A stretch of DNA of 64,000 bases from an uncultured delta proteobacterium (GCA_963798485.1 CAWCTR010000030.1:96001-160000); one strand, 5' to 3'; shown: positions 6,908-26,008, numbered from the stretch's first letter. Notes: generated from the letters alone by a model not told the origin. Made by a program: numbers and translations.

Positions 6908-9839
6908 ATGATACATGAAGAAACAATCAGGAAGATACTCGACAGTATCGGTGATGGGTATTATGAAATGGATCTTGCAGGAAACCTGACTTCCTTTAAT
7001 AAATGGCTCCCCATAATTTCCGGATATAGTGATGAAGAGATAATGAATATGGATTTCCGGAAATACATGGATGCCGAGGATGCCAAAAAGGTCTTTCATG
7101 TATATCAGAATGTCTTTCTAACCGGCCGGCAGGTTAATGCGGTGACATGGGCCTTGATCAAGAAGAATGGATCGCAAGCCCAGGCGGAGGCGTCGGTCTC
7201 GCTTATAAAGGACGAGTCTGATAAACCAATAGGGTTTCGCGGTATTGTCAGGGACGTAACAGAGAGGAAAAAGACAGAAGAGGCCTTGAAGGCAAGTGAG
7301 GAAAGGTACCGCGCCCTTGCCGAGAATATGCAGGATGTCATCTGGATTATCAAGGATATGAATTTCAGTTATGTCAGCCCTGCTGTTGAAAGACAATGGG
7401 GATATTGTATTGAAGATATCCTCGGCAAACCTGTGGAAAATTTCCTGGACACTCAATCATGCCTCACGCTGAATAACATTGTGAATGATGTAGTTCTTTC
7501 AGAAGGTGAAAATAAGGCGATCCTCGAAATGCCCCTTGAGCTTGAGGTCATATGCAAGGATGGCTCTAAGATTTGGACAGAGGCTTCAATCAATGTACTC
7601 TTTGATCCTTCAGGTAAATTGGCAGGCTTCCAGGGGTTATCGAGGGATATTACACTCAGGAAGATGGTTGAGGGTGCGCTGGAGGAAAATTTTAATCTCC
7701 TCCAGAAACTGATCGACTCCATACCCAACCCCATATTCTATACCGACACCCAAGGGAGGCTGAACGGATGCAACCTGGCATACGAAGTGGTCTGCGGGGA
7801 GGCAAAGGTTGATATTGTCGGAAGCCCTTTCTCCGCGGTATCCCCCAAAGAGCTGCTTGCACTCTATAATAAAGAGTCTTCCGGGTTGTCAGGGGAGCAT
7901 GACAGCATACAGGAATACCTATCAGGCATGGAATATGCCGATGGGTCCAGGCACGATATCATACTGAGCATTACCACCTTTACCGACGCCGAGGGGAAGA
8001 AGGCCGGAACGGTAGGTGTACTGTTCGACATCACCGATCAGAAGCGTCAAGAACAGAAGATCCAGCAGGCGCTTGATGAATCGGAGAAAAGTCAGGCTGA
8101 GATATCCGCATTGCTGAATGCCTCACATATTGTCCTGGAGAAACAGGATTTTGAAGAATCATCACATGGTATCTTCGATAACTGCAAGACCCTGATCGGG
8201 GCATCCGCAGGGTATGTTTCTATCTTTGGAGAAGATACCGGCCAAGAGGAGATAATATATACGGATCTGGCCGTTGTTAATGGCAGTGCCCTGACATGCC
8301 TCGGCATGAAAGAGGAACTGAGAGATATTGTCTCGGTGAAGGGGAAAACCATATTCATCAATAAGATTTCATGTAAAGAAAATGATATCCCTTTTGAACC
8401 ACAGCCCTACAACGTTCTTGTTTCGCCGCTCAAGGGAGAGGGGGGACCACAGGGCCTTATCGTCCTGGTGAACAAGCCAGGGGGGTTCAATAAGGACGAT
8501 GCGCGGTTGGCCAAGGCCTTCGGCGAGTTTGCATCCATTTCACTGCTCAACAGCCGTACCCTGAGGTCCCTTGAGACCAGCGAGAAACGGTTCCGCTCGG
8601 TCGCCCAGACAGCCAATGACGCATTTATTACTTACGACACCGATTCAAGGATTATTCTGTGGAACAAGAGTGCGGAAAGGATGTTCGGTCATGCAACACA
8701 TGATGCATTAGGAAGAGACATAACTATCATAATCCCTGAGAGATTAAGGGATGCGTACAAGAGAGAAGTGAATAACATTATGAATGCCGCGCATAAGACC
8801 CAGACGAAAGATCCGCAGATGATAGGGAGAGCTTTCCAGATGACGGGATTGAAGAGTGACAAAAAAGAATTTCCCATCGAGATCTCGGTCTCCTCCTGGG
8901 AAGCAGAAGGGAAAAGCTTCTTCACTGCTATTATAAGAGATATCGCAGAAAGAAAACTGCTTGAAGATTCACTCAGGAAAGAGACGGATGATTTAAAAAG
9001 CGCTAGGGAGGAGTTGGAGAAGGCATATAAGGAACTCCAGACCACACAGTCACGTATCCTCCAGCAGGAAAAGATGGCCTCCATCGGACAGCTGGCCGCC
9101 GGGATGGCGCATGAAATCAATAATCCTATGGGATTTATCTCCAGCAATCTTTCAACCTTGGGCAAGTATGCCGGTAAAATTCATGACTATCTTTCAACCC
9201 AATCCGAGTTGCTTCAACGTGTTAAGAACAGTGAAGTCGTTGAACAACTTAATGGGAAGCGAAAGTCCCTGAAGATAGATTTCATCGTTGAAGATATCAA
9301 GGAATTGGTTAGGGAATCGCAGGACGGCGCTGAAAGGGTCAAGAAGATCGTGCAGGATTTAAAGAGCTTCTCACGGGTTGATCAGGAGGTACACAAGCCT
9401 GCCGATATCAATGAATGCATAGAGAGCACTCTGAATATCGTGTGGAATGAGTTGAAATACAAGGCAACTATACAAAAAGAATATGGAGAGATACCCTTAA
9501 CCAAATGCTATCCACAACAGATAAACCAGGTATTCATGAACCTCTTTGTCAATGCCGCACAGGCCATTGAGAAGCAAGGGGTGATAACGGTCAGGACATG
9601 GAGCCGGGACAATTCAATCTTTGCCTCTATCTCCGATACGGGCTGCGGTATGAAGTCCAGAGACCGTAAACCGCATCTTTGAGCCTTTCTTTACAACCAA
9701 GGATGTAGGCAAGGGCACCGGCCTTGGCCTGAGTATAACCTATGACATCATAAAAAAGCATGAAGGTGAGATAACCGTACAAAGCGAGCTCGGCAAAGGG
9801 ACCACATTTACCATACGAATTCCTGTTGTAGAAGAATAA
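6908..9839 (+). CDS. Multi-PAS/GAF sensor histidine kinase with a one-base frameshift near 9655
   Basis: Several PAS/PAC repeats, H-box [12 protein letters not shown]-box [15 protein letters not shown]. The F and G2 boxes ([18 protein letters not shown]) continue in another frame to TAA 9839. Confidence 0.9.
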
Positions 9840-11417: not shown

Positions 11418-11695
11418 ACACCCCTCCTTATCAGATGAATCAGCCGGGCCAAGAAAATCGAAATGTTATATTATGCACTAACGAGCATACTAAAATAATA
11501 ACGAATCCGGTTCAATCGGGGGTGATATGAAAATGATGTCGTGCCTGCTCGTATGGATCTGTAGCAAAATCTATTACTGCTTGTACTTATTGACATAATA
11601 AACTGATTAGGCTTAAGCTTATTGTGTAATTCATTGAATACTGAGGCGGACATACCCTTCCCCGGCATCGCAATACACATATTGAGGAGCGATTG

Positions 11696-14386
11696 ATGGA
11701 TGGTACTGTGTTGACATTGAATGGAAAGCAGGTTGAATTCAAACAGGGACAGACGATCCTCGACGTTGCTACTGACAATGGTATTAAAATTCCAACGCTG
11801 TGCTATCTGAAGGGCTGTACGCCCACCGGTGCGTGCCGGGTGTGCCTGGTGGAGGTCGCAGGGGCCAGGTCACTGGTGGCCTCGTGTTCCACCCCGGCCG
11901 AGAAGGGCATGCTTATTGAGACCGACTCACAGCGTGTTCATCACTCGCGCAAGCTCAACATCGAGTTCCTGCTGGCAAGCGGCAAGCACAACTGCCTCAC
12001 CTGCGAGAGCTCGGGTGACTGCACCCTCCAGGAAATGGCATATCGTTATGGCATCGAGACGCTCCGATTCGAGAGCACTCCCCAGCCTTATGAAACAGAA
12101 GATGTGAACCCCTTCATCATCCGTGACTTCAAGAAGTGCATCCTGTGCGGACGCTGTGTGCAGGCCTGCCAGGACGTCCAGGTAAACCAGGCCATCTCGT
12201 TCGGCAACCGCGGGCCTCATGCCAAGATCATTGCAGGCACGGACACGCGCTATGACCTGAGCGACTGCGTGTTCTGCGGGCAGTGCGTGCAGGCATGCCC
12301 GGTGGGCGCCCTCATCGAGAAGAAGTCGAAGTTTCTTGGCCGCATCTGGGATGTGCGAAAGGTCCGCACCACCTGTCCCTACTGCGGGGTAGGGTGCCAG
12401 CAGTTGTTGCATGTTAAAGCCGGGAAGATCGTCAAGGTCACGGCCCCGGACGACGCTTTGCCCAACAAGGGCAGGCTCTGTGTCAAGGGCCGGTTCGGGT
12501 ATGACTTCATCTACTCTGAAGACCGCCTCAAAACGCCGCTCATCAAGGAGAACGGAACGTTTAGGGATGCGTCATGGGACGAGGCCCTCAACTTGGTAGT
12601 TAGGAAATTTAAAGAGATCAAGGAAAAGCACGGTCCTGACGCCATAGCCGGCGTCAGCTGCGCCAGGAGCCTGAACGAAGACTCCTACCAGATGCAGAAG
12701 CTCTTCCGCGCAGTGATCGGCACCAACAACATCGATCACTGCGCGCGAACGTGACACGCCCCCACGGTCGCCGGTCTGGCGATCGCATTCGGTTCAGGCG
12801 CAATGACGAACTCCTTCGGCGAGTTCGAGAACGCCAAGATGTTCCTGGTCATCGGGTCCAACATGACCGAGGCCCATCCCGTGGCAGCCACCTTCCTCAA
12901 GAACGCGGTCATGAAGGGGGCCGAGCTCATCTTGGTGGACCCGAGAAAGCATAAACTCGCTGATTTCGCCGGCATGCATGTCCCCATAAAAGTGGGCAGC
13001 GATATCGCCTTCCTGAACGGTCTCATGTACGTCCTCATCACCGAGGACCTCTATGACAAGGAATTTGTAGAGGCACGCTGCAAGGGGTTTGACGAGCTTA
13101 AGGCCATGGTCATGAACTACCCGCCGGAAAAGGCCGCCGAAATAGCAGGGGTGAGCGCCGACATGATCCGGCTGGCGGCCCGGAGACTGGCATCGGTGAA
13201 GCCGGTCATGTGCTGCTACACACTGGGTATCACCGAGCATACCTGTGGAAGAAATAATGTTCTCTCAGTTGCCAACCTCCAGATGCTGCTGGGAAACCTG
13301 GGCATGGAGGGCGGCGGTGTGAACCCTCTGAGAGGACAGAACAACGTGCAGGGCGCCTGTGACATGGGGGCCTTGCCCAATGTGTTCCCCGGCTATCAGC
13401 AGGTAGGCAACGCGGAAGCCCGGGCCAAGTTCGAAAAGGCCTGGGGCGTCACCGGCCTGCCCGACAAGCCGGGCCTTATGATCCCCCAGATGATGGATGG
13501 CCTCAAGGATGGCAAGATCAAGGGCTTATGGATCTTCGGCGAAAACCTGGCGAATACCGAACCGGATATCGCCAAGGTCGAACATGAGCTCGCCTCTGCC
13601 GAGTTTCTCGTGTGCAACGACATCTTCCCCACCGAGACCACCCGGTTCGCCCACGTCGTGTTCCCGGCAGCGGCCTGGAGCGAGGACGACGGCACCTTCA
13701 CCAGCTCTGAGCGCCGTATCAGCAGGGTGCGCAAGGTGAGCGAGCCCCCGGGAGAGGCCAGGCCGAACTGGTGGATCTTCAAGGAGATCGCAAAGAGGAT
13801 GGGTCATGAGTGGCAATCGAACAGCGGCCCCGAGCTCTGGGACAACGAGGTCTCGGTCCTGGCACCCGCCTTTGGCGGGGTGAAATATCGCCGCATCGAG
13901 AACGACGGCCTCCAGTGGCCGTGCCCCAACGAGGAGCACCCCGGAACTGCAGTTCTCCATAGGGGAGGTGTGTTCGCGAGCGGCCTGGGCCAGCTTACGC
14001 CCGTGGAATGGACCCCGCCCGCCGAGGTAGCGGACAGCGAGTATCCCTTTGTGTTGTCCACGGGCCGCAGGCTCTACCACTACCATACCCGTACCCAGAC
14101 CGGCCGCACCGGCCTGGACTGGTTGCTGGGCGAGGAGACCGCGGACATATCTCTTGAAGACGCCCGGAACCTGGGCATCAGCCATGGCGAGACGATTCGG
14201 GTACGGTCCCGCAGGGGAGAGGTCAAAGTGAAGGCCAAGGTCACCAAGCAGGTACCCAGGGGCATGGTCTGGATGTCCTTCCACTTCAGGGACGGCAATG
14301 CCAACTGGCTTACCAACCCGGCCTTTGACCCGAACACGCTGACCGCCGAGTACAAGGCCTGCGCAGTGGCCATCGAGAAGATCTGA
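11696..14386 (+). CDS. fdhF: Formate dehydrogenase alpha subunit, selenocysteine-containing, with N-terminal [2Fe-2S]/[4Fe-4S] module
   Basis: ORFs 11693-12754 and 12803-14386 are in one frame joined by TGA 12752-12754, reading NIDHCART-U-HAPTVAGL..FGSGAMTN. Fe-S motifs GACRVC, CILCGRCVQAC, CVFCGQCVQACP, CPYCGVGC; RGQNNVQG. Confidence 0.95.
12766..12784 (+). promoter_or_regulatory. Bacterial SECIS hairpin
   Basis: GGTCGCC-GGTCT-GGCGATC stem-loop begins 11 nt after the in-frame UGA, matching fdhF-type SECIS spacing and loop. Confidence 0.8.
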
Positions 14387-18587: not shown

Positions 18588-19541
18588 TTGAGGACCACAT
18601 CACTTCCAGGGCAAGCAGGAATTTCGAGGCTGAACCTTTTCCTGGCACTTTCCCGTACGCCCCATTTGTTATTGGATCTGGCAGCCCCTGGTTTGGCGGC
18701 ATTGCTTTGTTTGGGTGCCTTTCCCTCTGCCAGGGTGCTTGTCCTTGGGCTGATCACCGCCTTCTCTGGTTATACGGCCGTGTATGCCCTGAACGATATC
18801 ATTGATTACCGCTTTGATAAGGAACTCATTGGCTCAAGCACAGCCCATGAATCGAAACCGGACCTGGACAGCGTACTAGTACGCCATCCCATTGCGCAGG
18901 GGATGTTGAGTTACAAGGAAGCCTTGTTTTGGACCTCTGCCTGGGCGGTCCCGGCGCTGGCAGGGGCCTTTCTCCTCAACCCCATATGCCTTGCCATTTT
19001 CCTCGGTGCCGCTGTGTTTGAAGTCATCTACTGTTGTCTCCTGAAGATCACCCACCTCCGCAGTATCATCAGCGGAATAGTCAAAACCTCAGGGCCCATC
19101 GCAGCGGTTTTCGCGGTAAACCCACAACCTACCATGCCATTCTTGATGACACTCTTTCTCTGGCTCTTCTTCTGGGAGATCGGGGGGCAGAATGTCCCGA
19201 ACGATCTGTCCGATCTGGATACCGATCAGCAGATAAGGGCCCGGACAATCCCTGTGCGCTTCGGTGCACAGAGGTCTATCCTGATCATATGCTTCTCACT
19301 GGTCATTGCCGTTGCCATGAGTATGGCCATGTTCTGGGTAGTGCCAAACCATATAAGACCTCTCTATCTCTTGGGTGCGATATTTTCAGGATTGTATTTT
19401 CTCCTGTTACCTGCTTACCATCTGGTTAAGACCAGGGGGGCAGAGGAGGCCTCCCGGCTGTTTAACCGGTGCAGTTACTATCCTTTGTCCATGCTCATGA
19501 TAACAGTGTTGAGCTTGGCGGCTATTCGAATAATTGTATAA
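18588..19541 (+). CDS. UbiA-family membrane prenyltransferase
   Basis: Asp-rich motifs YALNDIIDYRFD and NVPNDLSDLDTD, RHPIAQG, TIPVRFG; multiple TM helices. Confidence 0.9.
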   Translation: MRTTSLPGQAGISRLNLFLALSRTPHLLLDLAAPGLAALLCLGAFPSARVLVLGLITAFSGYTAVYALNDIIDYRFDKELIGSSTAHESKPDLDSVLVRHPIAQGMLSYKEALFWTSAWAVPALAGAFLLNPICLAIFLGAAVFEVIYCCLLKITHLRSIISGIVKTSGPIAAVFAVNPQPTMPFLMTLFLWLFFWEIGGQNVPNDLSDLDTDQQIRARTIPVRFGAQRSILIICFSLVIAVAMSMAMFWVVPNHIRPLYLLGAIFSGLYFLLLPAYHLVKTRGAEEASRLFNRCSYYPLSMLMITVLSLAAIRIIV

Positions 19542-19575
19542 TGGGTTAGATGGTACCCTATCAAGAAAGGACGAT

Positions 19576-20292
19576 ATGAAAGAATTCGACCCGGAATCTC
19601 TGGCAGAATTCAACGGCAAAGACGGTAAGCCCGTGTATGTGGCCCACAAGGGCAAGGTGTTCGACCTAAGCGAGAGCAGACTATGGAAGACCGGGCTCCA
19701 CATGAAGCGTCACCCCGCAGGGCAAGATCTCACCATCGATATCTGGGCGGCACCACATGGACCTGAGGTCCTGGACAAATATCCTCAAGTAGGCACCTTG
19801 AAAAAACAAGCCACTGGTGGCCAGTTGCCCAATCCATTGGAAATGATGATGGATCGGTTTCCCTTTCTGCGCCGTCATCCGCACCCCATGCTGGTGCACT
19901 TCCCCATTGTATTCATGATCGCCCCTGCGATCTTTTGCATCCTTTACCTTATCACCGATATGAAGTCTTTTGAGACCACGGCCTTTCACTGCCTGGGTGC
20001 AGGCATCCTTTTTTCCATTCCGGCCATCCTTACAGGCTTCTTCACCTGGTGGCTCAACTATCAGGCCAGATCCATGAGGCCCATCAGGATCAAGATATAC
20101 TTTTCCCTCTTCCTCTTTGCAGTCGCCCTCATTACCTTCTCCTGGCGGGCATTGTTCACGGATGTCCTCACCTCTTTGGACAAAGAGGGTATTGCATATT
20201 TTCTGCTGATCCTCTCGCTGGTCCCTCTGGTGGGGGTCATAGGCTGGTATGGCGCAAGCCTGACCTTTCCCCTTGAGAAAAAATCTCTGTGA
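19576..20292 (+). CDS. Cytochrome b5-like domain fused to a DUF2231-like membrane domain
   Basis: LAEFNGKDGKPVYVA.KGKVFD, GLHMKRHPAGQDLT, APHG; then HPHPMLVHFPI and four TM segments; RBS AAGGA before ATG 19576. Confidence 0.82.
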   Translation: MKEFDPESLAEFNGKDGKPVYVAHKGKVFDLSESRLWKTGLHMKRHPAGQDLTIDIWAAPHGPEVLDKYPQVGTLKKQATGGQLPNPLEMMMDRFPFLRRHPHPMLVHFPIVFMIAPAIFCILYLITDMKSFETTAFHCLGAGILFSIPAILTGFFTWWLNYQARSMRPIRIKIYFSLFLFAVALITFSWRALFTDVLTSLDKEGIAYFLLILSLVPLVGVIGWYGASLTFPLEKKSL

Positions 20293-20299
20293 AGTATCC

Positions 20300-20893
20300 C
20301 TATCGTTTGATTGCAAGTCCGAAGATCTCCAGCTTTTTGATCTCTACACATTTTCCAAGCTCCAGTCCGGCCATACACAAGCCTTGCTTCAAGTCCCGGC
20401 TGCAGAACCGGTTCTCGGTCGGATGGAGGAGGATATGCCTGGTGAGGATGTTCTGGTAAAGCGTCGGGTAGAGCTCTTCGAAGAAGTAGACACCGCCGGG
20501 CTTCAAAACCCTGACGATCTCTGAAAGTGCACCTTGCCAGTCAGGGATATGATGGAGGACCCCGAAGCCGAAAACTGCATCCATAATCCCGGCTTGATAG
20601 GGCAGTTGGTTCACATCGCCTACATAAAAGGAGACACCGGATCTCTTCTCTGGGGAAAGGTAGTTGAAGGCCTTCTGAATCATCCGGATATCGAGGTCCA
20701 TGGCATGCAGCATTGCGGGCTTGAACATGGTCTTGATAAGAAAGGAGCCTGCCCCCCTGCCGCATCCTATTTCCAGGACAGCAGCATCGGGCTTCTGCCC
20801 AAGGCCCTTTTTCAGCAATGCGATCTCCAGGCGCTGCTGCAGAGGCCGGATAGGGTTATTGACCGCCATGCGTTCCGCCCAGTTCAGTTTCAT
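20300..20893 (-). CDS. Class I SAM-dependent methyltransferase
   Basis: VLEIGCGRGAG, GVLHHIPDW, RVLKPGG; ATGA overlap with ubiE. Confidence 0.88.
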   Translation of the reverse strand: MKLNWAERMAVNNPIRPLQQRLEIALLKKGLGQKPDAAVLEIGCGRGAGSFLIKTMFKPAMLHAMDLDIRMIQKAFNYLSPEKRSGVSFYVGDVNQLPYQAGIMDAVFGFGVLHHIPDWQGALSEIVRVLKPGGVYFFEELYPTLYQNILTRHILLHPTENRFCSRDLKQGLCMAGLELGKCVEIKKLEIFGLAIKR

Positions 20894-21636
20894 TGTTTGA
20901 CCCCGATATAGATAACCGCAATACCATTCGTGAGCCTTCGGTAGGTCACCCGGGAAAATCCGGTATCTCTCATTTTGGCTGCGAAATCATCAGGTGCAGG
21001 GAACTTTCGTATGGACTCGGGAAGATAGAGATATGCCTCGCTGTTTCCTGCCAGGAGTTTGCCTACCAAGGGCATGATGTGAAAAGAATAGAAATCATAG
21101 AGAAACCTGAACCAGGAAGAGGTGGGTATGGAGAACTCCAGGCACATCATCTTCCCACCCGGCTTGAGGACCCGGTACATCTCTTGAAGTCCTTTGTCCA
21201 TGTCTGTCAGGTTACGAACACCAAAGCCAACCATGGCTGCATCAAAAGAACCGTCAAGGAAAGACATGGACTCCGCATCCCCCTGGACATAGTTGATTCG
21301 TTCTGTCAGCGATGCCTTTGCCACCTTTTGCGTTGCCCATTCCATCATGGCGCGGTTGATGTCATAGAGGGTCACCCGTCCATGAGGACCAACCGCCTTT
21401 GCCGCCAGTATTGAAAGATCTCCTGTCCCCCCGCATACGTCGATTACCCGGTCTCCTGGTTTTAACCCCAAGACATTTACGGATAACCGTTTCCAGAGGT
21501 GGTGGAGTCCGAGACTGAGGATGGTATTCATGAAATCATACTTATTGGCTATGCTCGTGAAGTGTCTGAGGACATATCCGGCCTTGTCCTCACGGGGAAC
21601 CGCGGGTGAACCGGAATAGGCCTTCATTTTCTTCAT
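20890..21636 (-). CDS. ubiE: UbiE/MenG-family quinone C-methyltransferase
   Basis: FTSIANKYDFMN.ILSLGLHHLWK, DVCGGTGD, GFGVRNLTD, EMYRVLKPGG...CLEFS, AYLYLPESIRKFP. Confidence 0.92.
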   Translation of the reverse strand: MKKMKAYSGSPAVPREDKAGYVLRHFTSIANKYDFMNTILSLGLHHLWKRLSVNVLGLKPGDRVIDVCGGTGDLSILAAKAVGPHGRVTLYDINRAMMEWATQKVAKASLTERINYVQGDAESMSFLDGSFDAAMVGFGVRNLTDMDKGLQEMYRVLKPGGKMMCLEFSIPTSSWFRFLYDFYSFHIMPLVGKLLAGNSEAYLYLPESIRKFPAPDDFAAKMRDTGFSRVTYRRLTNGIAVIYIGVKQ

Positions 21637-22523
21637 ATCTGATACCCGTCTCCCAGCATGGCCAAAAGGTCAAACCCAGCCTCTTGAAAGATGGGGAGGA
21701 GAAAGCTCAGGCTCTCTTGGCCGGCATGCACGGGCATGTTCGCATAGGTATAGAGTTCCAGGCTGATATCATCTTTATAGCCGCTTTTCAGGATGACATC
21801 GAGTACGTTGTGAAAACCAATGGCACCGAGGCCCGGGATAAGGTGGTAATGGCGGCGGTCATGGGCGATATCTTCAATATGGATATGCCCGATCCAGGGC
21901 AGAAGCTCTTGGAAGGCCTCGCATGGGTCTTCCCCTGCGCAGAAGAAATGCCCGATGTCGAAATTGAGCCCGAGAGAGGTTGATTGGGCTTCCTGAATGA
22001 ATTCCTTGAACTGCCGGGTATTTTCCAAAAGCAGGTCAGGCTCCGGTTCCACAAGGATCTTTACCTGAAGCTGTTCTGCCAAGGGCAAAACCTTTTCCAT
22101 ACTGTCATGGAAAAGGGCCAAGGCAACCTTACGGGACATGCCATTCAAAGGGCCTCCGGGGGGGACGGAGATATTGTCACACCCGAGATAAGACGCCAGC
22201 TTCAGGCATTCGAGGGTGTGTCGGATCCTGATCTCCCTACTCTCTTTCATGGGTTCTATCCAGGAGGGAAGGTAGGTATCACCCACTGCGAACAGGGTGA
22301 AGCTGTTCAGGTTGGTAATCCGAAGGCCCTTTTCATCAACCAGCTTTTTAAGCCGGATCAGGCCTTCCGGCCCCCAGTCCCGGGGGTAGAGGTGGGGGCG
22401 GTCTGCCATGACTTCAACCCCGCCGAAACCCAGCCCGGCGATCATGTCAATGGCATCGAACAATGGGTAATTAACAAAGGCGTTGGTGCTGTATCCGAGC
22501 TTCAATCGATTATCTCCCGGCAA
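21633..22523 (-). CDS. Xylose-isomerase-like TIM barrel (sugar phosphate isomerase/epimerase/dehydratase family)
   Basis: YSTNAF, VEPEP, NFDIGH, HIHIEDI, HYHLIPGLGAI, ISLELY metal-binding pattern. Confidence 0.85.
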   Translation of the reverse strand: MPGDNRLKLGYSTNAFVNYPLFDAIDMIAGLGFGGVEVMADRPHLYPRDWGPEGLIRLKKLVDEKGLRITNLNSFTLFAVGDTYLPSWIEPMKESREIRIRHTLECLKLASYLGCDNISVPPGGPLNGMSRKVALALFHDSMEKVLPLAEQLQVKILVEPEPDLLLENTRQFKEFIQEAQSTSLGLNFDIGHFFCAGEDPCEAFQELLPWIGHIHIEDIAHDRRHYHLIPGLGAIGFHNVLDVILKSGYKDDISLELYTYANMPVHAGQESLSFLLPIFQEAGFDLLAMLGDGYQI

Positions 22524-23647
22524 TCATTTTCCAGGTGATGGAGAGCAGAGAGTTGTTCCTGAAAGGTGACCGGGGGATTGGGGCCTGCGGGTTTCTTAAA
22601 ATAGAATCCCAGCTCCGGCACCAGACCAGGCCGTTTGGCCTTATGCACGGCAACCATCCACCATGCCAGGTCAATGATCATGGGCCCTGCCAATATAGAG
22701 TCACGGGCCTGCAGATTCAACCTGAGGCTCATGGGCATTCCGAACAGCCCGGTAAAGTCAATGACATCCCAGGCCTCTTTACAATCCCCACGGGGGGGAT
22801 AATAATCGATGACCACCTTATGGGAGGGCGCCCCATAGTGATGACCAACCCGGTATCCAAGAATATCTTCGAGCAGGTCGGTTTTATTGGCGATCTTGCC
22901 TGCCGCCTTATCGGGATCGGCAAGGTTCCTGCCGTCTTCATTACCAAGGATATTCAAACTGTACCATCCATCCACCTGCAGGCCGCGCGCCTTCAGCGCT
23001 GAGGCGAGCACCATCTTAAGATAGGTCTGGCCGGTCTTCCCGTCGCGGCCGCACAAGGGGACCCCGGCCTTTATTGCCTCCTGGGCGATCATTGGCAGCT
23101 CCAGGTAATTTGATGTGAAGTTCACGATTGGCGTGCCTGTAGATATGGCAGCAAGGACATAGGCCAGGTCAGGGAAGTCCCGGGCATCGGCCTGTGAATA
23201 GATTTCATCCAGTGATTGGAATTCCTGAAGGTCCATTACTCTGCTTGCCGGAAGCAGATTGACAAGGACAGGATGGGTATCCGGGAAGAGGCCTTTAAAA
23301 TCATGGATATCCCTTATTAAGTGCTCTACCTGTTTATGAAGAGGTAAATCATTGCCTGGTGCCTGCCGTATCGGGAATGTGCCGAGATGTTCCAGGCAGG
23401 GGAGATATTTCTCAGGGGGGAGAACACCATGGTATTCGATGGCCTGCTTAAGGGTTCGAGGGGCTACATCCCACCCGGCAAGCTCGAGGCCCGTCAGAGG
23501 GTCCAGGTCCTTGAACCAGTGGCCCGTGGTCAGCCAGGGCAGCACCTTTTCAGGGGCTTCCTTCATTACTGCAATGGCGGCGGCAACGGTAGAACCTGTC
23601 GCACCTGCGGCACCGGCAATAAGGAGAAGAGGCGGGTTCGAGTGCAA
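22502..23647 (-). CDS. ino1: myo-inositol-1-phosphate (inositol-3-phosphate) synthase homolog
   Basis: GRDGKTGQTYLK, WYSLNILGNEDG, IDYYPPRGDCKEAWD, RDSILAGP..IDL, FYFKKP; Rossmann GAAGATGS. Confidence 0.9.
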   Translation of the reverse strand: MHSNPPLLLIAGAAGATGSTVAAAIAVMKEAPEKVLPWLTTGHWFKDLDPLTGLELAGWDVAPRTLKQAIEYHGVLPPEKYLPCLEHLGTFPIRQAPGNDLPLHKQVEHLIRDIHDFKGLFPDTHPVLVNLLPASRVMDLQEFQSLDEIYSQADARDFPDLAYVLAAISTGTPIVNFTSNYLELPMIAQEAIKAGVPLCGRDGKTGQTYLKMVLASALKARGLQVDGWYSLNILGNEDGRNLADPDKAAGKIANKTDLLEDILGYRVGHHYGAPSHKVVIDYYPPRGDCKEAWDVIDFTGLFGMPMSLRLNLQARDSILAGPMIIDLAWWMVAVHKAKRPGLVPELGFYFKKPAGPNPPVTFQEQLSALHHLENDCREIID

Positions 23648-23648
23648 G

Positions 23649-24629
23649 CTAGACCTTTCCCCGCATTATCCAGTAAACCATGCCGGTGTAGAACAAGATA
23701 ACGGGGAAGATCACGATCCCTGCCCCATAGAAGAGGAATCGAAGCGTCTGGACAGGGGCCGCTGCCGTTTCAATTGTAACGGTAAATGGAATCATATATG
23801 GCCAGAAGCCTGCCTCCAAGGCCAGGAATGCGGCAAAGAAGATAATAACCGCCATCCCGTAGGGGACCCAGTCCAGCCGTCTTTGTACCCCTGTCCACAG
23901 GCTGATGGAGGCAAGGGCTATAATCAGCGGGAATATCATAAGCCAGACATCTTCAAAAAAGCGGTCCCTGACACGCAGGTGGATTGCAAGGGTGTAGAGA
24001 AAGACGACGGCAAGAACCCCCAGGACCCCTGCGAGCAGCCACCCCACCCGGTCATAGGCCCATTCGCGTATGGGTCCCCCCGTCTTGAAGACAAGCCAGG
24101 CAGCACCCAGGAGCGTATAACCTATTACCAGACCCATGCCGCAGAACAAAGAAAACGGTGTCAGCCAGTCGAATGCGCCCCCTGCGTATTGTCCGTCAAC
24201 AACACTAAGCCCCTGGACCATCCTTCCGATGGCTATCCCTTGAACAAGGCTTACCATGAAGGAGCCGAGGAAGAATCCTCTGTACCAGAACCGTCTGTAG
24301 CGCCCTGCATGATAACGGAACTCAAATGCGACACCTCGGAATATCAACCCCATAAGCATGAGGGCCATGGGCAGGTAGAAGGCGGGGAGAAAGATTGCAT
24401 AGACCATGGGAAAGGCTGCAAAGAGGCCGGCCCCGATGAGGACGAGCCAGACTTCGTTCCCGTCCCAGAATGGGGCGATAGCGTTCATCATGGTATCCTT
24501 GAATCCCTCGTCCCTTGTGGTACCGGACAGGATGCCTACACCGAGGTCATAGCCGTCAAGGATGACATAAAAGAGCATGGCAAAGGCAATCAGAGAAGCC
24601 CAGAAGACAGGGAGCCAGGATGCACCCAT
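23649..24629 (-). CDS. cydB: Cytochrome bd quinol oxidase subunit II
   Basis: YVILDGYDLGVGIL, PFWDGNEVWLVL, FAAFP..Y, LIFRGVAFEFR. Confidence 0.95.
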   Translation of the reverse strand: MGASWLPVFWASLIAFAMLFYVILDGYDLGVGILSGTTRDEGFKDTMMNAIAPFWDGNEVWLVLIGAGLFAAFPMVYAIFLPAFYLPMALMLMGLIFRGVAFEFRYHAGRYRRFWYRGFFLGSFMVSLVQGIAIGRMVQGLSVVDGQYAGGAFDWLTPFSLFCGMGLVIGYTLLGAAWLVFKTGGPIREWAYDRVGWLLAGVLGVLAVVFLYTLAIHLRVRDRFFEDVWLMIFPLIIALASISLWTGVQRRLDWVPYGMAVIIFFAAFLALEAGFWPYMIPFTVTIETAAAPVQTLRFLFYGAGIVIFPVILFYTGMVYWIMRGKV

Positions 24630-24634
24630 AAGTG

Positions 24635-26008
24635 TTACCCCTTTGCCTGAGTAGTAGTACCGGCTGTTCTTGCTTCAGCCGTAATCTTGGTTTCAGCATC
24701 AGACGGGCCTTGGCGAAGCAGGGCGTAGATATAGAAAGCGCCCGGGAAAAAGATCACGGAGTATACAATCGCATAGCCGATAAGGGTTGTGAGAACATTT
24801 GCCCCGCTCAGTGTCGGGGTCAGCGTGTCGGATGTCCTCAGAAGGCCGTATACCACCCAGGGCTGGCGGCCTATCTCTGTGGTGAACCAGCCGAGGATAA
24901 CGGCAAGGAAGCCTAGGGGGAAGGCAAGGCTCGCTGACCAGAGGTACCATCGTGTGGTCTCCAGCCGCCCGCGCAAACGAAGCCATAGACCGAACAGGCT
25001 GATGCCCAGCATCAGCATGCCGAGACCTACCATGATGCGGAAAGAAAAGAAGGGGATGAGGACAGGCGGCCAGGCATCTTTGGGGAAATCACTCAGACCG
25101 TGAACAGGTGCCGTCCAGCTGCCTGTTGCAAGCCAGCTCCCGATGTAAGGTGTCGTGATGGTGAAGAGGTTTCTCTGATTCTTTTCATCAGGGATTGCGA
25201 ACCATATCTGTGATCCCGGCTGTTCAGGGTGCCAGCGCGCCTCTACGGCAGCGAATTTTGCCGGCTGATAAGTATACATGTGTTTGCCGTTGATATCTCC
25301 TATAATGATCTGGACGATCATCAGCACCGCCGTGATCACCAGTCCCCAGTTCAGCATGACACGCGCCTCGGCGCGATGAACATCCCTGAGCACATACCAA
25401 GCCCCTGTGGATATAATGCACATGGCGGTGGTAAGGAATGTGGCCAGCAGCATGTGCAACCAGCGGGCCAGGAACACCGGCCCGAGGACGATCGCCGTCC
25501 AGTCGGTGGGGATGATCCTGCCGGCAATGATTTTATAACCCACCGGCACCTGCATCCAGCTGTTGTTGCACAGGATCCAGAAGGAAGACAAGACTGCGCC
25601 CATGGCCAGCATGCAGCATGAAAAGAAATAGAACCACGGTGCTGCTCGGTTGCGGCCGTAGAGTACGACACCCAGGAAGGTCGCCTCAAGCATGAATGCC
25701 GTGAAGGTCTCATACCCAAGCAAGGGTCCCATGACGGAACCCGCCTTTGACGACATCACGCTCCAGTTGGTGCCGAACTGGAATGCCATGACCATGCCGC
25801 TGACAACACCCATGGCGAACAGTATCGCAAAGATCTTCAACCAGAAATCAAAGAGCCTTTGGTAGAGAGAATTGCCGCTTGATAGATGCAGCCCTTCAAG
25901 CAGCGCCAGCCATATGGATAATCCGATGGTTATGGAAGGAAAGATTATATGAAAGGAGACAGTGAACGCGAATTGGATGCGGGAGAAGATCAACGGATCT
26001 AGATTCAC
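24635..26008 (-). CDS. cydA: Cytochrome bd quinol oxidase subunit I (short Q-loop, CioA-like)
   Basis: SRIQFAFTVSFHIIFP, FQFGTNW, RWLH, QPAKFAAVE, FRIMVG, GWFTTEIGRQPW. Confidence 0.95.
   Translation of the reverse strand: MNLDPLIFSRIQFAFTVSFHIIFPSITIGLSIWLALLEGLHLSSGNSLYQRLFDFWLKIFAILFAMGVVSGMVMAFQFGTNWSVMSSKAGSVMGPLLGYETFTAFMLEATFLGVVLYGRNRAAPWFYFFSCCMLAMGAVLSSFWILCNNSWMQVPVGYKIIAGRIIPTDWTAIVLGPVFLARWLHMLLATFLTTAMCIISTGAWYVLRDVHRAEARVMLNWGLVITAVLMIVQIIIGDINGKHMYTYQPAKFAAVEARWHPEQPGSQIWFAIPDEKNQRNLFTITTPYIGSWLATGSWTAPVHGLSDFPKDAWPPVLIPFFSFRIMVGLGMLMLGISLFGLWLRLRGRLETTRWYLWSASLAFPLGFLAVILGWFTTEIGRQPWVVYGLLRTSDTLTPTLSGANVLTTLIGYAIVYSVIFFPGAFYIYALLRQGPSDAETKITAEARTAGTTTQAKG

Follow-up and report, generated by a model that had tools for sequence, protein, structure and literature searches.

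Organization of the cydAB-linked gene cluster

The window analyzed here is a 64,000-nt stretch of DNA from an uncultured delta proteobacterium, a sulfate-reducer-type bacterium, in which ORF calls and Pfam/NCBIfam searches defined an eight-gene cluster spanning positions 18588-26008 (Table 1). In the operon headed by cydA, gaps of 5 nt and 1 nt separate cydA from cydB and cydB from MIPS-X, respectively, and TIM-X/UbiE-X and UbiE-X/MT2 each overlap by 4 nt. MT2 converges with the b5/DUF2231 gene, their stops lying 7 nt apart, and the latter overlaps UbiA-X by 8 nt. The genes, gaps and overlaps listed in the first-pass annotation were reproduced with the exception of the TIM-X start. The 22-nt overlap with MIPS-X claimed there applies if TIM-X is taken as the longest ORF; since TIM-X orthologs begin M(K/V)LGYS and the window has a TTG at 22505 overlapping the MIPS-X stop as TTGA, this TTG is probably the start, giving a 4-nt overlap and making the shorter gene more likely than one reaching 22523. 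A promoter and terminator pattern scan produced no signal clearly exceeding that of shuffled sequence. As also noted previously, the annotated neighbors (12.8-30.7 kb) do not include genes of the chorismate, mqn or men routes or a ring hydroxylase.

Table 1. Positions and domain matches of the eight clustered genes
Gene	Position	Strand	Match	Predicted product or remark
cydA	24635-26008	-	PF01654, 493.8 bits	Cytochrome bd quinol oxidase subunit I; heads the operon
cydB	23649-24629	-	PF02322, 276.8 bits; TIGR00203, 135 bits (cut-off 117)	Cytochrome bd subunit II
MIPS-X	22502-23647	-	PF01658, 106.7 bits; PF07994, 56.8 bits	381 aa, short
TIM-X	21633-22505 (longest ORF to 22523)	-	PF01261, 129.6 bits	Xylose-isomerase-like TIM-barrel metalloenzyme
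UbiE-X	20890-21636	-	PF01209, 261 bits	UbiE/MenG-family quinol C-methyltransferase
MT2	20300-20893	-	Methyltransf_11/25/31	Class I SAM methyltransferase, candidate O-methyltransferase
UbiA-X	18588-19541	+	PF01040, 107.7 bits	UbiA-superfamily prenyltransferase, uncharacterized clade
b5/DUF2231	19534-20292	+	PF00173, 29.2 bits; PF09990, 62.7 bits	Cytochrome b5/DUF2231 fusion, candidate membrane redox partner

Predicted functions of the encoded proteins

The closest PDB matches of MIPS-X were 7nwr and 1u1i. Alignment indicated that the catalytic residues of MIPS are kept, with D225, N255, D261, K274, K278, K306, D332 and K367 of the A. fulgidus enzyme, which we take to be its catalytic residues, all identical in MIPS-X. 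Proteins at least 52% identical to MIPS-X were present in 11 genomes of a 301-genome phylum sample, with next-best matches at or below 44%, indicating by sequence a distinct clade of myo-inositol-1-phosphate-synthase-family cyclases; one of these genomes (G150) also has a canonical 450-aa-type MIPS. MIPS-X adjoins TIM-X in all 11, and the two were adjacent in 45 of the 55 metagenome loci whose upstream sequence was long enough.

The predicted TIM-X structure has a pLDDT of 92.9. An ortholog alignment, in which E159, E161, D189 and H192 are invariant and H215 and E256 nearly so, shows conservation of the acidic and His residues typical of the TIM-barrel superfamily. PDB profile searches placed MJ1311 first (89.8 bits) and AsbF second (59 bits). 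In fold searches the epimerases/isomerases UlaE, Art22 and MJ1311 were equally close, with AsbF, IolE and IolI among the structural relatives, and there was no specific pointer to a dehydratase. TIM-X shares its superfamily with IolE (inosose dehydratase), IolI (inosose isomerase) and AsbF/QuiC (3-dehydroshikimate dehydratase), which act on polyhydroxy-cyclohexanones and are among its sequence or fold matches, but it scores well under every family cut-off (IolE 32 bits against 290; EboE 28.6 bits against 250) and its closest solved relative, MJ1311, is uncharacterized. TIM-X is a candidate keto-cyclitol dehydratase or isomerase.

UbiE-X passes the bifunctional UbiE model NF001244 (242.5 bits, cut-off 216), and its top NCBIfam model is MpqE (291 bits, under the cut-off of 335). 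It is the sole full-length UbiE/MenG-family member, and the sole strong PF01209 match, in the host genome. Homologs at least 53% identical occur in 39 of the 301 genomes. Five of these (G174, G265, G211, G064 and G176) additionally have a MenG-type paralog, located in G265 between two MqnA/D matches, and sequence comparison thereby indicates that UbiE-X is a paralog separate from the menaquinone MenG type. In five other genomes (G000, G029, G070, G106 and G150) UbiE-X is the only UbiE-family gene (E <=1e-30) and must therefore serve menaquinone too, which its cluster position could reflect. MT2 scored 32.7 bits with the UbiG model (cut-off 103) and follows UbiE-X in loci of families f1, f26, f33 and f39; other lineages have a true UbiG-type methyltransferase in its place, that of G211 reaching 261 bits with TIGR01983 (cut-off 103).

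UbiA-X contains both Asp-rich motifs and gave no PDB sequence match at E <=0.01. Its top NCBIfam model was 'ubiA_other' (87 bits, cut-off 181), and models for archaeal ether-lipid prenyltransferases (52-65 bits) scored roughly as high as aromatic ones. Assignment as MenA, MqnP or 4-HB UbiA was rejected, all such models giving at most 46 bits (MenA and MqnP 24-42 bits). UbiA-X differs from the bona fide MenA of the host (NF004751, 350 bits), and in G152 the probable MqnP is a different PF01040 protein (202 bits) next to an MqnA/D match. By these scores and the paralog pairs UbiA-X and UbiE-X are both non-canonical, contrary to the placement in canonical MqnP/MenA/MenG clades that the first-pass annotation named as refuting its proposal. 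In the window, as in L011, L032, L048-L051, L060 and L065, the b5/DUF2231 gene adjoins UbiA-X, and L034 has a c-type-cytochrome/DUF2231 fusion next to MIPS-X. cydA adjoins the cluster in close relatives, and a 44%-identical cydA lies beside a variant with a DHQS-like cyclase (G211/L047), placing cydAB next to the cluster in two unrelated architectures.

Gene linkage and quinone pathways across genomes

The cydAB-MIPS-TIM-UbiE-MT arrangement was intact in four of eight genome-contig loci, all four from Desulfomonilia or delta-proteobacterial MAGs, and MIPS-TIM-UbiE with MT and/or UbiA was found in five families of the phylum sample (f1, f26, f33, f73 and f93) and on metagenome contigs. A TIM-X ortholog was present in 19 of the 301 genomes. 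UbiE-X occurred in 18 of these 19 and 21 of the other 282, and UbiA-X (35 genomes in total, 27 of them with UbiE-X) in 15 and 20, respectively, although members of the sample are related, so these counts overstate independence.

At least five gene orders, differing by lineage, tie TIM-X to quinone-tailoring genes: MIPS-TIM-UbiE-MT2(-UbiA) in f1, f26, f33 and metagenomes, MIPS-TIM-UbiG-type-UbiE in G241, L090 and L112, UbiG-type-MIPS-TIM in L121 and L124, TIM-UbiE lacking a cyclase gene in G050 and G302, and TIM with a DHQS-like cyclase together with UbiG/UbiA-X/cydAB (G211), polyprenyl synthase (G269) or UbiE/UbiA-X/UbiG-type (L130). The linkage, whose lack of conservation the first-pass annotation named as refuting its proposal, recurs in other genomes and in several orders. 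In G211 and G269 the DHQS-like gene (PRK06203 model, 525-552 bits) occupies the place of MIPS and canonical aroB exists separately, indicating at the sequence level a second, non-housekeeping copy and a non-homologous swap for MIPS.

The linkage is not universal. Among 54 metagenome loci extending at least 1 kb downstream, 41 have no query gene after TIM-X, and the 17 loci flanked on each side by at least 5 kb included ten MIPS-TIM pairs with no recognized quinone gene nearby and one solitary TIM-X (L125). MIPS-TIM lies among unrelated neighbors in L012, L013 and G152, the last having neither UbiA-X nor UbiE-X. In two Desulfobacterales genomes, as on most long metagenome contigs, no quinone genes accompany the pair. 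UbiA-X is missing from four of the 19 genomes with TIM-X, and TIM-X from 20 of those with UbiA-X. A UbiE-MT2/b5-UbiA module free of TIM and MIPS was observed in f39 (L048), and UbiA-b5 pairs in L049-L051.

In the host genome (97.5% complete) UbiD, MqnA/D, MenB and MenD were not found and MenA is present apart from the cluster; regarding the question raised earlier of a separate men, mqn or ubi pathway, MenA was thus the only one of these genes detected. Members of Desulfomonile, the genus of the host's relatives, are cultured with added 1,4-naphthoquinone (PMC7773648). A salvaged naphthoquinone probably gives the host menaquinone as well, via this MenA. MqnA/D genes were found in five of the 11 genomes with the MIPS-TIM pair, where the cluster would add a second carrier rather than substitute for menaquinone. 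UbiD-family decarboxylases were not found in G000, G214, G005 and G241, which argues against a carboxylated ring precursor.

A possible sugar-derived quinol and alternative products

The operon content suggests an undescribed synthesis of a respiratory quinone ring with sugar, not chorismate, as its source. Our tentative reading, for which we see slightly less than an even chance, is that the product is a benzoquinol bearing prenyl and methyl groups, made by way of a sugar cyclase independently of chorismate, that feeds cytochrome bd. The data show the identities of the genes, the structure of the operon, a linkage both conserved and re-shuffled, co-occurrence across genomes and the missing UbiD, Mqn and Men genes, whereas each chemical step, including aromatization and oxidation of the product by cytochrome bd, is inferred. 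MIPS-X would close a hexose phosphate into a six-membered carbon ring, which TIM-X, as a metal-dependent enzyme, would dehydrate or isomerize as a (keto)cyclitol towards a polyhydroxybenzene. UbiA-X would join a polyprenyl chain to the ring, UbiE-X would C-methylate it and MT2 would add a further methyl, probably on oxygen, the role presumably taken by true UbiG in other lineages. The b5/DUF2231 membrane heme protein may serve as redox partner, and the co-transcribed cytochrome bd would oxidize the resulting quinol. Canonical MIPS ends with an NADH reduction giving inositol phosphate, and aromatization to a tetrahydroxybenzene requires net oxidation; the reduced MIPS product and the lack of a dehydrogenase gene in the operon count against the aromatization step. 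The ubiquinone-like carrier proposed in the first-pass annotation is partly supported, by the conserved linkage, the non-canonical UbiA and UbiE, the DHQS-like replacement of MIPS and the lack of a detected UbiD. The specific route given there, from inosose by way of tetrahydroxybenzene to ubiquinone, is hypothetical, MIPS-TIM often stands alone, and where MqnA/D is present the cluster would provide a second carrier.

A literature search found no paper on such a sugar-cyclase-linked prenylquinone cluster. According to PMC11874023, the source also for the Mpq genes of methyl-plastoquinone, every extant quinone pathway draws on a chorismate derivative; an O2-independent UbiTUV ubiquinone route is described in Desulfobacterota class GWC2-55-46 (PMC13386864). 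The cluster resembles the ubiquinone and Mpq systems in its UbiA-family prenyltransferase, its UbiE-type C-methyltransferase matching MpqE and bifunctional UbiE models, the true UbiG of relatives and the predicted product class, a methylated and possibly methoxylated polyprenyl benzoquinol. It differs from the ubiquinone system in the absence of a detected UbiD, in a UbiA-X far under 4-HB prenyltransferase models, and in having a cyclase and TIM barrel in the genomic place of UbiC, UbiD/X and hydroxylases, of which UbiD was searched for genome-wide. In combining a prenyltransferase with a UbiE-family methylase the cluster also recalls the late menaquinone steps (MenA or MqnP, then MenG), and UbiE-X is the sole MenG candidate in several genomes, whereas the host MenA is separate and five genomes have a MenG-type paralog in addition to the UbiE-X type. 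Menaquinone synthesis does not require a second methyltransferase, a cyclase or a TIM barrel.

A rather unlikely alternative is that two unrelated modules adjoin, MIPS-X/TIM-X supplying an inositol phosphate or isomer for a solute or lipid head group, and UbiE-X, MT2, UbiA-X and b5/DUF2231 tailoring a quinone whose ring is obtained by salvage or by synthesis outside the cluster, such as a menaquinone-related ring or one derived from an imported aromatic compound, with cydAB there as the quinol user. The solitary MIPS-TIM pairs, the modules free of both genes, the genomes with UbiE-X as sole UbiE, the intact MIPS catalytic residues, the host MenA unaccompanied by MenB, MenD or MqnA/D, and the naphthoquinone supplied to Desulfomonile (PMC7773648) are all consistent with this. 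However, linkage of TIM-X with UbiE, UbiG and UbiA-X in several orders and with another cyclase is more than one inherited chance adjacency would explain, UbiE-X is nearly constant in TIM-X genomes, the canonical MIPS of G150 argues that MIPS-X is not simply for inositol supply, and the 4-nt overlaps of TIM/UbiE and UbiE/MT2 suggest translational coupling.

Quite improbable is a non-aromatic prenylated and methylated cyclitol lipid acting as a carrier or protective lipid rather than a redox quinone, by analogy with the proposal for the ebo cluster. That cluster encodes EboC (UbiA-type prenyltransferase), EboD (DHQS-like sugar phosphate cyclase) and EboE (xylose-isomerase-like TIM barrel), and its proposed product is an isoprenoid-cyclitol-derived compound (PMC5133447). 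The core logic of cyclase, TIM barrel and UbiA-family enzyme is shared, DHQS-like cyclases accompany TIM-X in G269, G211 and L130, the TIM-X fold lies near epimerases and isomerases, and UbiA-X fits ether-lipid and aromatic models about equally. The window cluster differs in its MIPS-family cyclase, in a TIM-X failing the EboE model, in the lack of an EboC-named model among the 19 NCBIfam matches of UbiA-X and in its additional UbiE, MT2/UbiG, b5/DUF2231 and cydAB genes, and EboA, TatD-like EboB and phosphodiesterase EboF are absent from the annotated genes, in agreement with the earlier remark that the TatD and phosphatase partners are missing. The full-length UbiE, the true UbiG of relatives and the adjacency of cydAB also speak against such a lipid. 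To our knowledge the rings on which UbiE and UbiG act are invariably aromatic, either prenyl-quinols or catechols.

Highly improbable is a shikimate-branch variant, in which cyclase and TIM barrel would yield a carboxylated aromatic, as when an AsbF-like dehydratase takes dehydroquinate to protocatechuate, for ubiquinone-like processing by UbiA-X, UbiG and UbiE: AsbF is the second-best TIM-X profile match, in G269 and G211 the DHQS-like partner clears the cut-off of a model labeled 3-dehydroquinate synthase and UbiG occurs in DHQS-type lineages, but no UbiD was detected in the four genomes above, canonical aroB is separate, and the partner in the window and most loci is MIPS, from which a carboxylated ring is impossible.

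Gene content of the cytochrome bd-MIPS cluster

Eight ORFs lie within 18588-26008 of the window, and matches to Pfam and NCBIfam families agree with the labels given to all eight in the first-pass annotation, including a cytochrome bd oxidase indicated by CydA and CydB domains encoded in adjacent genes (Pfam). The gaps and overlaps described between the genes were also borne out, save that the 22-nt overlap between the genes for the MIPS-family protein (MIPS-X) and the TIM barrel (TIM-X) is more probably 4 nt, because TIM orthologs start at 'M(K/V)LGYS' in the ortholog alignment and a TTG at 22505 shares bases with the MIPS stop codon (TTGA). The cluster is flanked by unrelated genes encoding a formate-dehydrogenase-like protein, a molybdate/tungstate-type ABC transporter, FmdE, DUF6982, a DUF5698/DUF2179 protein, a helicase, a glyoxalase-fold protein and an MCP. 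The match to the formate-dehydrogenase-like molybdopterin oxidoreductase starts at profile position 98 in the second of two ORFs, the first being immediately 5' of it; these could be one gene with an in-frame stop, possibly selenocysteine, and are followed by the molybdate/tungstate-type transporter and FmdE. A scan for promoter and terminator patterns gave nothing clearly exceeding shuffled sequences.

Positions (window coordinates) and family matches of the cluster genes and of a neighbouring ORF pair
Feature	Position	Strand	Family match and remarks
ORF preceding the molybdopterin oxidoreductase	11693-12754	+	
Molybdopterin oxidoreductase, formate-dehydrogenase-like, second ORF	12803-14386	+	
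UbiA-X, UbiA-family prenyltransferase	18588-19541	+	PF01040; converges on minus-strand genes
Cytochrome b5 domain fused to DUF2231 membrane domain (b5/DUF2231)	19534-20292	+	Family matches; converges on minus-strand genes
MT2, small class I methyltransferase	20300-20893	-	Family matches
UbiE-X, full-length UbiE	20890-21636	-	PF01209
TIM-X, xylose-isomerase-like TIM barrel	21633-22523 (longest ORF)	-	PF01261
MIPS-X, MIPS family, 381 aa	22502-23647	-	PF01658 and PF07994
cydB	23649-24629	-	PF02322, 276.8 bits; 5-nt gap to cydA
cydA	24635-26008	-	PF01654, 493.8 bits

MIPS-X has a Gly-rich N-terminus, matches PF01658 (106.7 bits, gathering cut-off 27) and PF07994 (56.8 bits, cut-off 25) and, in a phmmer alignment with positions counted by hand, is identical to 1u1i at eight of eight catalytic residues of A. 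fulgidus MIPS (1u1i/3qvs; D225, N255, D261, K274, K278, K306, D332 and K367). Its sole NCBIfam match, the inositol-3-phosphate synthase equivalog TIGR03450, was not passed (32.7 bits vs 638). TIM-X matches PF01261 (129.6 bits), and its structure model (pLDDT 92.9) gave a TM score of 0.82 to UlaE. Among TIM-X orthologs E159, E161, D189 and H192 are invariant and H213, H215, D218, H225, H227 and E256 are conserved at 90% or above; by analogy these acidic and His residues are candidate metal ligands. The curated models for IolE (32.4 bits vs 290) and EboE (28.6 vs 250) were not reached. A profile-to-PDB search ranked the uncharacterised MJ1311 first (89.8 bits), followed by AsbF (59 bits), TM0416, Art22 and IolI, and in a fold search UlaE, Art22, MJ1311, AsbF, IolE and IolI were about equally close, favouring no specific activity. 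Members of this TIM-barrel family use keto-sugars and keto-cyclitols as substrates via metal-assisted enolisation, and TIM-X is a candidate dehydratase, epimerase or isomerase, activities that sequence and fold do not tell apart.

UbiE-X matches PF01209 over profile positions 7-233 of 233 (261 bits) and passes NF001244 (242.5 bits vs 216) and TIGR01934 (261 bits vs 158). Its top-scoring NCBIfam model, MpqE NF052510 (291.2 bits), lies under the cut-off of 335; in the ranking of these models UbiE-X stands nearest to MpqE and bifunctional UbiE, with demethylmenaquinone-only models lower (183-206 bits). UbiA-X (PF01040, 107.7 bits) has both Asp-rich motifs, read in translation as 'NDIIDYRFD' and 'DLSDLDTD', and falls short of MenA NF004751 (23.8 bits vs 264), three MqnP models (33-42 bits vs 375-430) and 4-hydroxybenzoate UbiA TIGR01474 (37 vs 275). 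A PDB sequence search found no solved structure related to UbiA-X, and in the Protein Atlas both UbiA-X and b5/DUF2231 match only their own unannotated families, mostly from Thermodesulfobacteriota. MT2 does not reach UbiG TIGR01983 (32.7 bits vs 103) and shares 24% identity with the UbiG of a sampled genome (G211), although it holds the position filled by UbiG-type enzymes in other lineages. Literature searches on DUF2231 and on MJ1311 found nothing relevant.

Conservation and variation of the MIPS-TIM linkage

Linkage was examined in 301 genomes drawn evenly from the phylum (G numbers, with families as f numbers) and in a separate set of eight loci from a species-level genome collection. The order cydAB-MIPS-TIM-UbiE-MT2 is kept in four of these eight (L008, L009, L010 and L014), MIPS-TIM-UbiE-MT2 converges on b5/DUF2231-UbiA in L011, two Desulfobacterales loci (L012 and L013) have MIPS-TIM alone among unrelated genes and the sequence of L015 stops inside MIPS. 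An apparent truncation of TIM in L012 (CP070746.1 region) is an artefact of masked bases, seen as X in translation. The MIPS-X clade is sharply bounded in the genome sample, with members at 52% identity or above in 11 of 301 genomes and next-best matches, the approximately 450-aa MIPS of the same phylum, at 44% or below. A TIM ortholog directly adjoins MIPS in all 11. The genes that follow vary: MIPS-TIM-UbiE-MT2, in some loci joined by a convergent UbiA, occurs in f1 (G214), f26 (G029, G070, G106 and G170) and f33 (G174, which has two DUF2231 proteins), MIPS-TIM-UbiE in f73 (G150), MIPS-TIM-MT-UbiE, with MT a methyltransferase, in f93 (G241) and MIPS-TIM-DUF169 in f74 (G152). One DUF2231 protein of G174 (L034:8305-9021), encoded divergently beside MIPS, carries a c-type cytochrome domain in place of b5; the b5/DUF2231 copy of this locus lies after MT2. 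The DUF169 (COG2043) gene directly 3' of TIM in G152 (L033:8345-9148) is also found in metagenome contigs L069, L071, L072 and L088, with 80-89% mutual identity.

A metagenome pattern scan seeded by the TIM alignment returned 444 relatives, from which the best 80 were counted. Among these best 80, 55 loci include 1300 nt or more upstream of TIM, and in 45 of them the MIPS-X clade is directly upstream; 54 loci include 1 kb or more downstream, and there the gene after TIM is UbiE in nine, a UbiG-type methyltransferase in two, DUF169 in three, a gene like 3-dehydroquinate synthase (DHQS-like) in one and no query gene in 41. The 17 loci of the best 80 that extend for 5 kb or more in both directions comprise 15 with MIPS, one with a DHQS-like gene and one with neither, and six of the 17 carry at least one of UbiE, MT and UbiA type (the ortholog of UbiA-X). 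These locus counts indicate that MIPS-TIM is the invariant core, to which quinone genes are often, though not always, linked.

Some genomes that lack the MIPS-X clade also have TIM orthologs, at 49-57% identity. In two of these (G269 and G211) the gene after TIM encodes a DHQS-like sugar-phosphate cyclase (PF01761/PF24621; PRK06203 525-552 bits), which scores 207-224 bits on TIGR01357, under the cut-off of 305, and a canonical aroB present elsewhere in each genome scores 330-339 bits. The order in G211 is cydBA (divergent), TIM, DHQS-like gene, a methyltransferase on the opposite strand that passes UbiG TIGR01983 (261 bits vs 103) and UbiA type; in G269 a polyprenyl synthetase gene comes after TIM and the DHQS-like gene, and a metagenome contig (L130) brings together UbiE, UbiA type, a UbiG-type methyltransferase, TIM and a DHQS-like gene. 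UbiE directly follows TIM with no adjacent cyclase in f46 (G050 and G302). No further cyclase was found near this pair or near five other MIPS-less TIM loci (L125, L131, L109, L081 and L139), where the neighbours are transporters, regulators and MTHFR. The linkage is thus conserved and is more than simple synteny.

A distant cluster type (L041-L045, from G086, G300, G227, G184 and G225, respectively) consists of a MIPS-like gene of approximately 405-415 aa, 29-37% identical to that of the window, then two paralogous TIM barrels at 35-38% and 42-45% identity. The three genes are adjacent in L041-L044 and have other genes between them in L045, and the neighbours are mixed (cytochrome c, NUDIX, DUF72). 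G086 has UbiA type, MT2 and b5/DUF2231 at a separate locus (L060).

UbiA type (at least 44% identity, plus one match at 35%) was found in 35 of 301 genomes and UbiE type (at least 53% identity) in 39, most other genomes having a UbiE-family gene at 34-43% identity. Nineteen genomes have a TIM ortholog at 49% identity or above (one a partial match); UbiE type is present in 18 of these vs 21 of 282 others, UbiA type in 15 of the 19 vs 20 of 282, and 27 of the 35 UbiA-type genomes have UbiE type; these counts are descriptive and not a test, because the sampled genomes are related. Modules without TIM or MIPS include UbiE-MT2 converging on b5/DUF2231-UbiA (G208), UbiA-UbiE-UbiG-type (G265), MT-UbiA-UbiE (G269) and several UbiA-b5/DUF2231 pairs.

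Quinone genes of the host and UbiE and UbiA paralogs

The host assembly (G000; 4.3 Mb, 32 contigs, 97.5% complete), in which the window occupies C30:96001-160000, is within the genome collection most closely related to MAGs titled Desulfomonilia or 'delta proteobacterium'. Of its four UbiA-family genes, one encodes a bona fide MenA (NF004751, 350 bits vs 264) and is located among clpB, KDO8P synthase, rpoN and an opp-type ABC transporter with no other men genes. The neighbouring clpB is split (L007:6872-7894 and 7620-9572 on host contig C16, model positions 1-253 and 253-853), which is a frameshift or assembly error. UbiE-X is the sole strong UbiE-family gene of the host (260.6 bits, runner-up 61.9). 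No MqnA/D (PF02621) was found in the host genome, and neither MenD (best 43.5 bits) nor MenB (best 126 bits vs 342.7) was found there over cut-off. The host is therefore equipped to prenylate and methylate a naphthoquinone head group, but no known route for its synthesis is apparent. This gene set fits naphthoquinone salvage, and a passage in PMC7773648 describes Desulfomonile cultures as routinely supplied with 1,4-naphthoquinone. UbiD (PF01977) had no match in G000 (97.5% complete), G214, G241 or G005.

Across the 301 genomes MqnA/D (PF02621) is present in 151 and a MenB-like match (E <=1e-60) in 46, the cut-off being exceeded in 12 of them. Neither marker is thus found in at least 104 genomes, among them three of three in f1 and six of six in f2. 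MenA was over cut-off in all six genomes tested (G000-G005). Replacement of a missing menaquinone head-group pathway by MIPS-TIM was rejected, since five of the 11 pair-bearing genomes have MqnA/D. A role for UbiA-X as the MqnP of the lineage was likewise rejected: the prenyltransferase beside an MqnA/D match in G152 is a different PF01040 protein (202 bits), and UbiA type is present in 35 of 301 genomes vs 151 for MqnA/D.

In four genomes with MqnA/D (G029, G070, G106 and G150) no UbiE-family match other than the cluster copy reaches E <=1e-30, so this copy must also finish menaquinone; the single UbiE of E. coli likewise serves two quinones. Five others (G174, G265, G211, G064 and G176) have window-type UbiE, at 53-59% identity in four and 46% in G064, together with a second copy 36-41% identical, indicating that window-type UbiE is a distinct cluster-associated paralog. 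It lies in the cluster or within approximately 16 kb of it in G174, G265, G211 and G064, and the second copy of G265 is situated between two MqnA/D matches (contig C20). A role as menaquinone methylase accounts for window-type UbiE only in part. The complete genome G269 has two window-type copies of 55% identity each, 22 kb apart (C1:2850625-2851359 and 2873463-2874182), one adjoining UbiA type.

Candidate products of the cluster

For a cyclase, a TIM barrel, UbiA, UbiE, an O-methyltransferase and a quinol oxidase encoded together, the most economical reading is conversion of a carbocycle to a benzoquinol. The carbocycle would be made from a sugar phosphate, aromatised, and then prenylated and methylated. 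We tentatively assign a sugar-derived prenyl-quinol as the product, at slightly less than even probability. It is possible, if rather doubtful, that this would be the first isoprenoid quinone with a non-chorismate ring, in which a MIPS-type or DHQS-like cyclase and a TIM-barrel dehydratase would supply a pre-oxygenated polyhydroxybenzene that UbiA-X, UbiE-X and MT2 or UbiG would turn into a ubiquinone- or demethoxyubiquinone-like carrier without O2, hydroxylase or decarboxylase. A carboxyl-free, pre-oxygenated ring agrees with the lack of UbiD in four cluster-bearing genomes, with the true UbiG of some lineages and with the interchangeability of MIPS and DHQS-like cyclase. One weak point of the benzoquinol reading is that the operon lacks a dehydrogenase. 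MIPS normally ends by reducing an inosose intermediate; the MIPS-TIM pair may treat the keto intermediate differently, the ring may be a benzenetriol that arises without net redox change, or the b5/DUF2231 protein may join in an oxidation.

A second weak point is that the MIPS-TIM pair stands alone in many contigs and in G152 is present without UbiA or UbiE type. Solitary pairs favour two unrelated modules that happen to be neighbours, an explanation that is unlikely but retains appreciable weight. Linkage that is conserved, re-shuffled and partly non-orthologous, together with co-occurrence of the genes, supports the initial proposal of a functional unit of sugar cyclase, quinone tailoring and cytochrome bd. 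Architecturally the nearest known system is the ebo cluster, with a DHQS-like cyclase, a TIM barrel and UbiA, the product of which is not known according to an excerpt of PMC5133447. It differs in its extra genes and its defining models are not reached by the window proteins; EboA, TatD-like EboB and phosphodiesterase EboF are absent from the Pfam matches of the eight cluster genes and ten flanking ORFs. A non-aromatic prenyl-cyclitol as the product is improbable. A variant of the shikimate branch is highly improbable, and the little probability left falls to something else. All extant quinone pathways begin from a chorismate derivative, as a section of PMC11874023 puts it.

The benzoquinol reading has its nearest counterpart in tailoring enzymology in ubiquinone and methyl-plastoquinone biosynthesis, the early steps of which are missing here. 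Ubiquinone ring oxygens come from O2-dependent hydroxylases or the UbiTUV system. Ubiquinone genes are placed in only one Desulfobacterota class by portions of PMC13386864, and in those portions no mention of a MIPS-TIM-UbiE cluster was found. Full-text searches turned up no paper in which a MIPS name is paired with UbiE or UbiA in connection with quinones, and those on inosose-to-tetrahydroxybenzene conversion with quinone or prenyltransferase returned chemistry papers only, in which the cluster is not described. If correct, a sugar-derived quinol would represent a third way to make respiratory quinones, with ring and oxygens from sugar phosphate, and would provide strictly anaerobic Desulfobacterota with a quinol of higher potential, of use to cytochrome bd and in defence against oxygen. 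It would also bear on the origin of high-potential quinones before abundant oxygen, alter genome-based prediction of quinone repertoires, provide a testable lead on the chemistry of ebo-type clusters and assign a function to a widespread unannotated gene pair (444 TIM relatives in the metagenome scan).

In one metagenome contig (L082:10867-11580) a Fe/Mn superoxide dismutase gene directly follows TIM which, together with cydAB at other loci, may point to a connection with oxygen defence.
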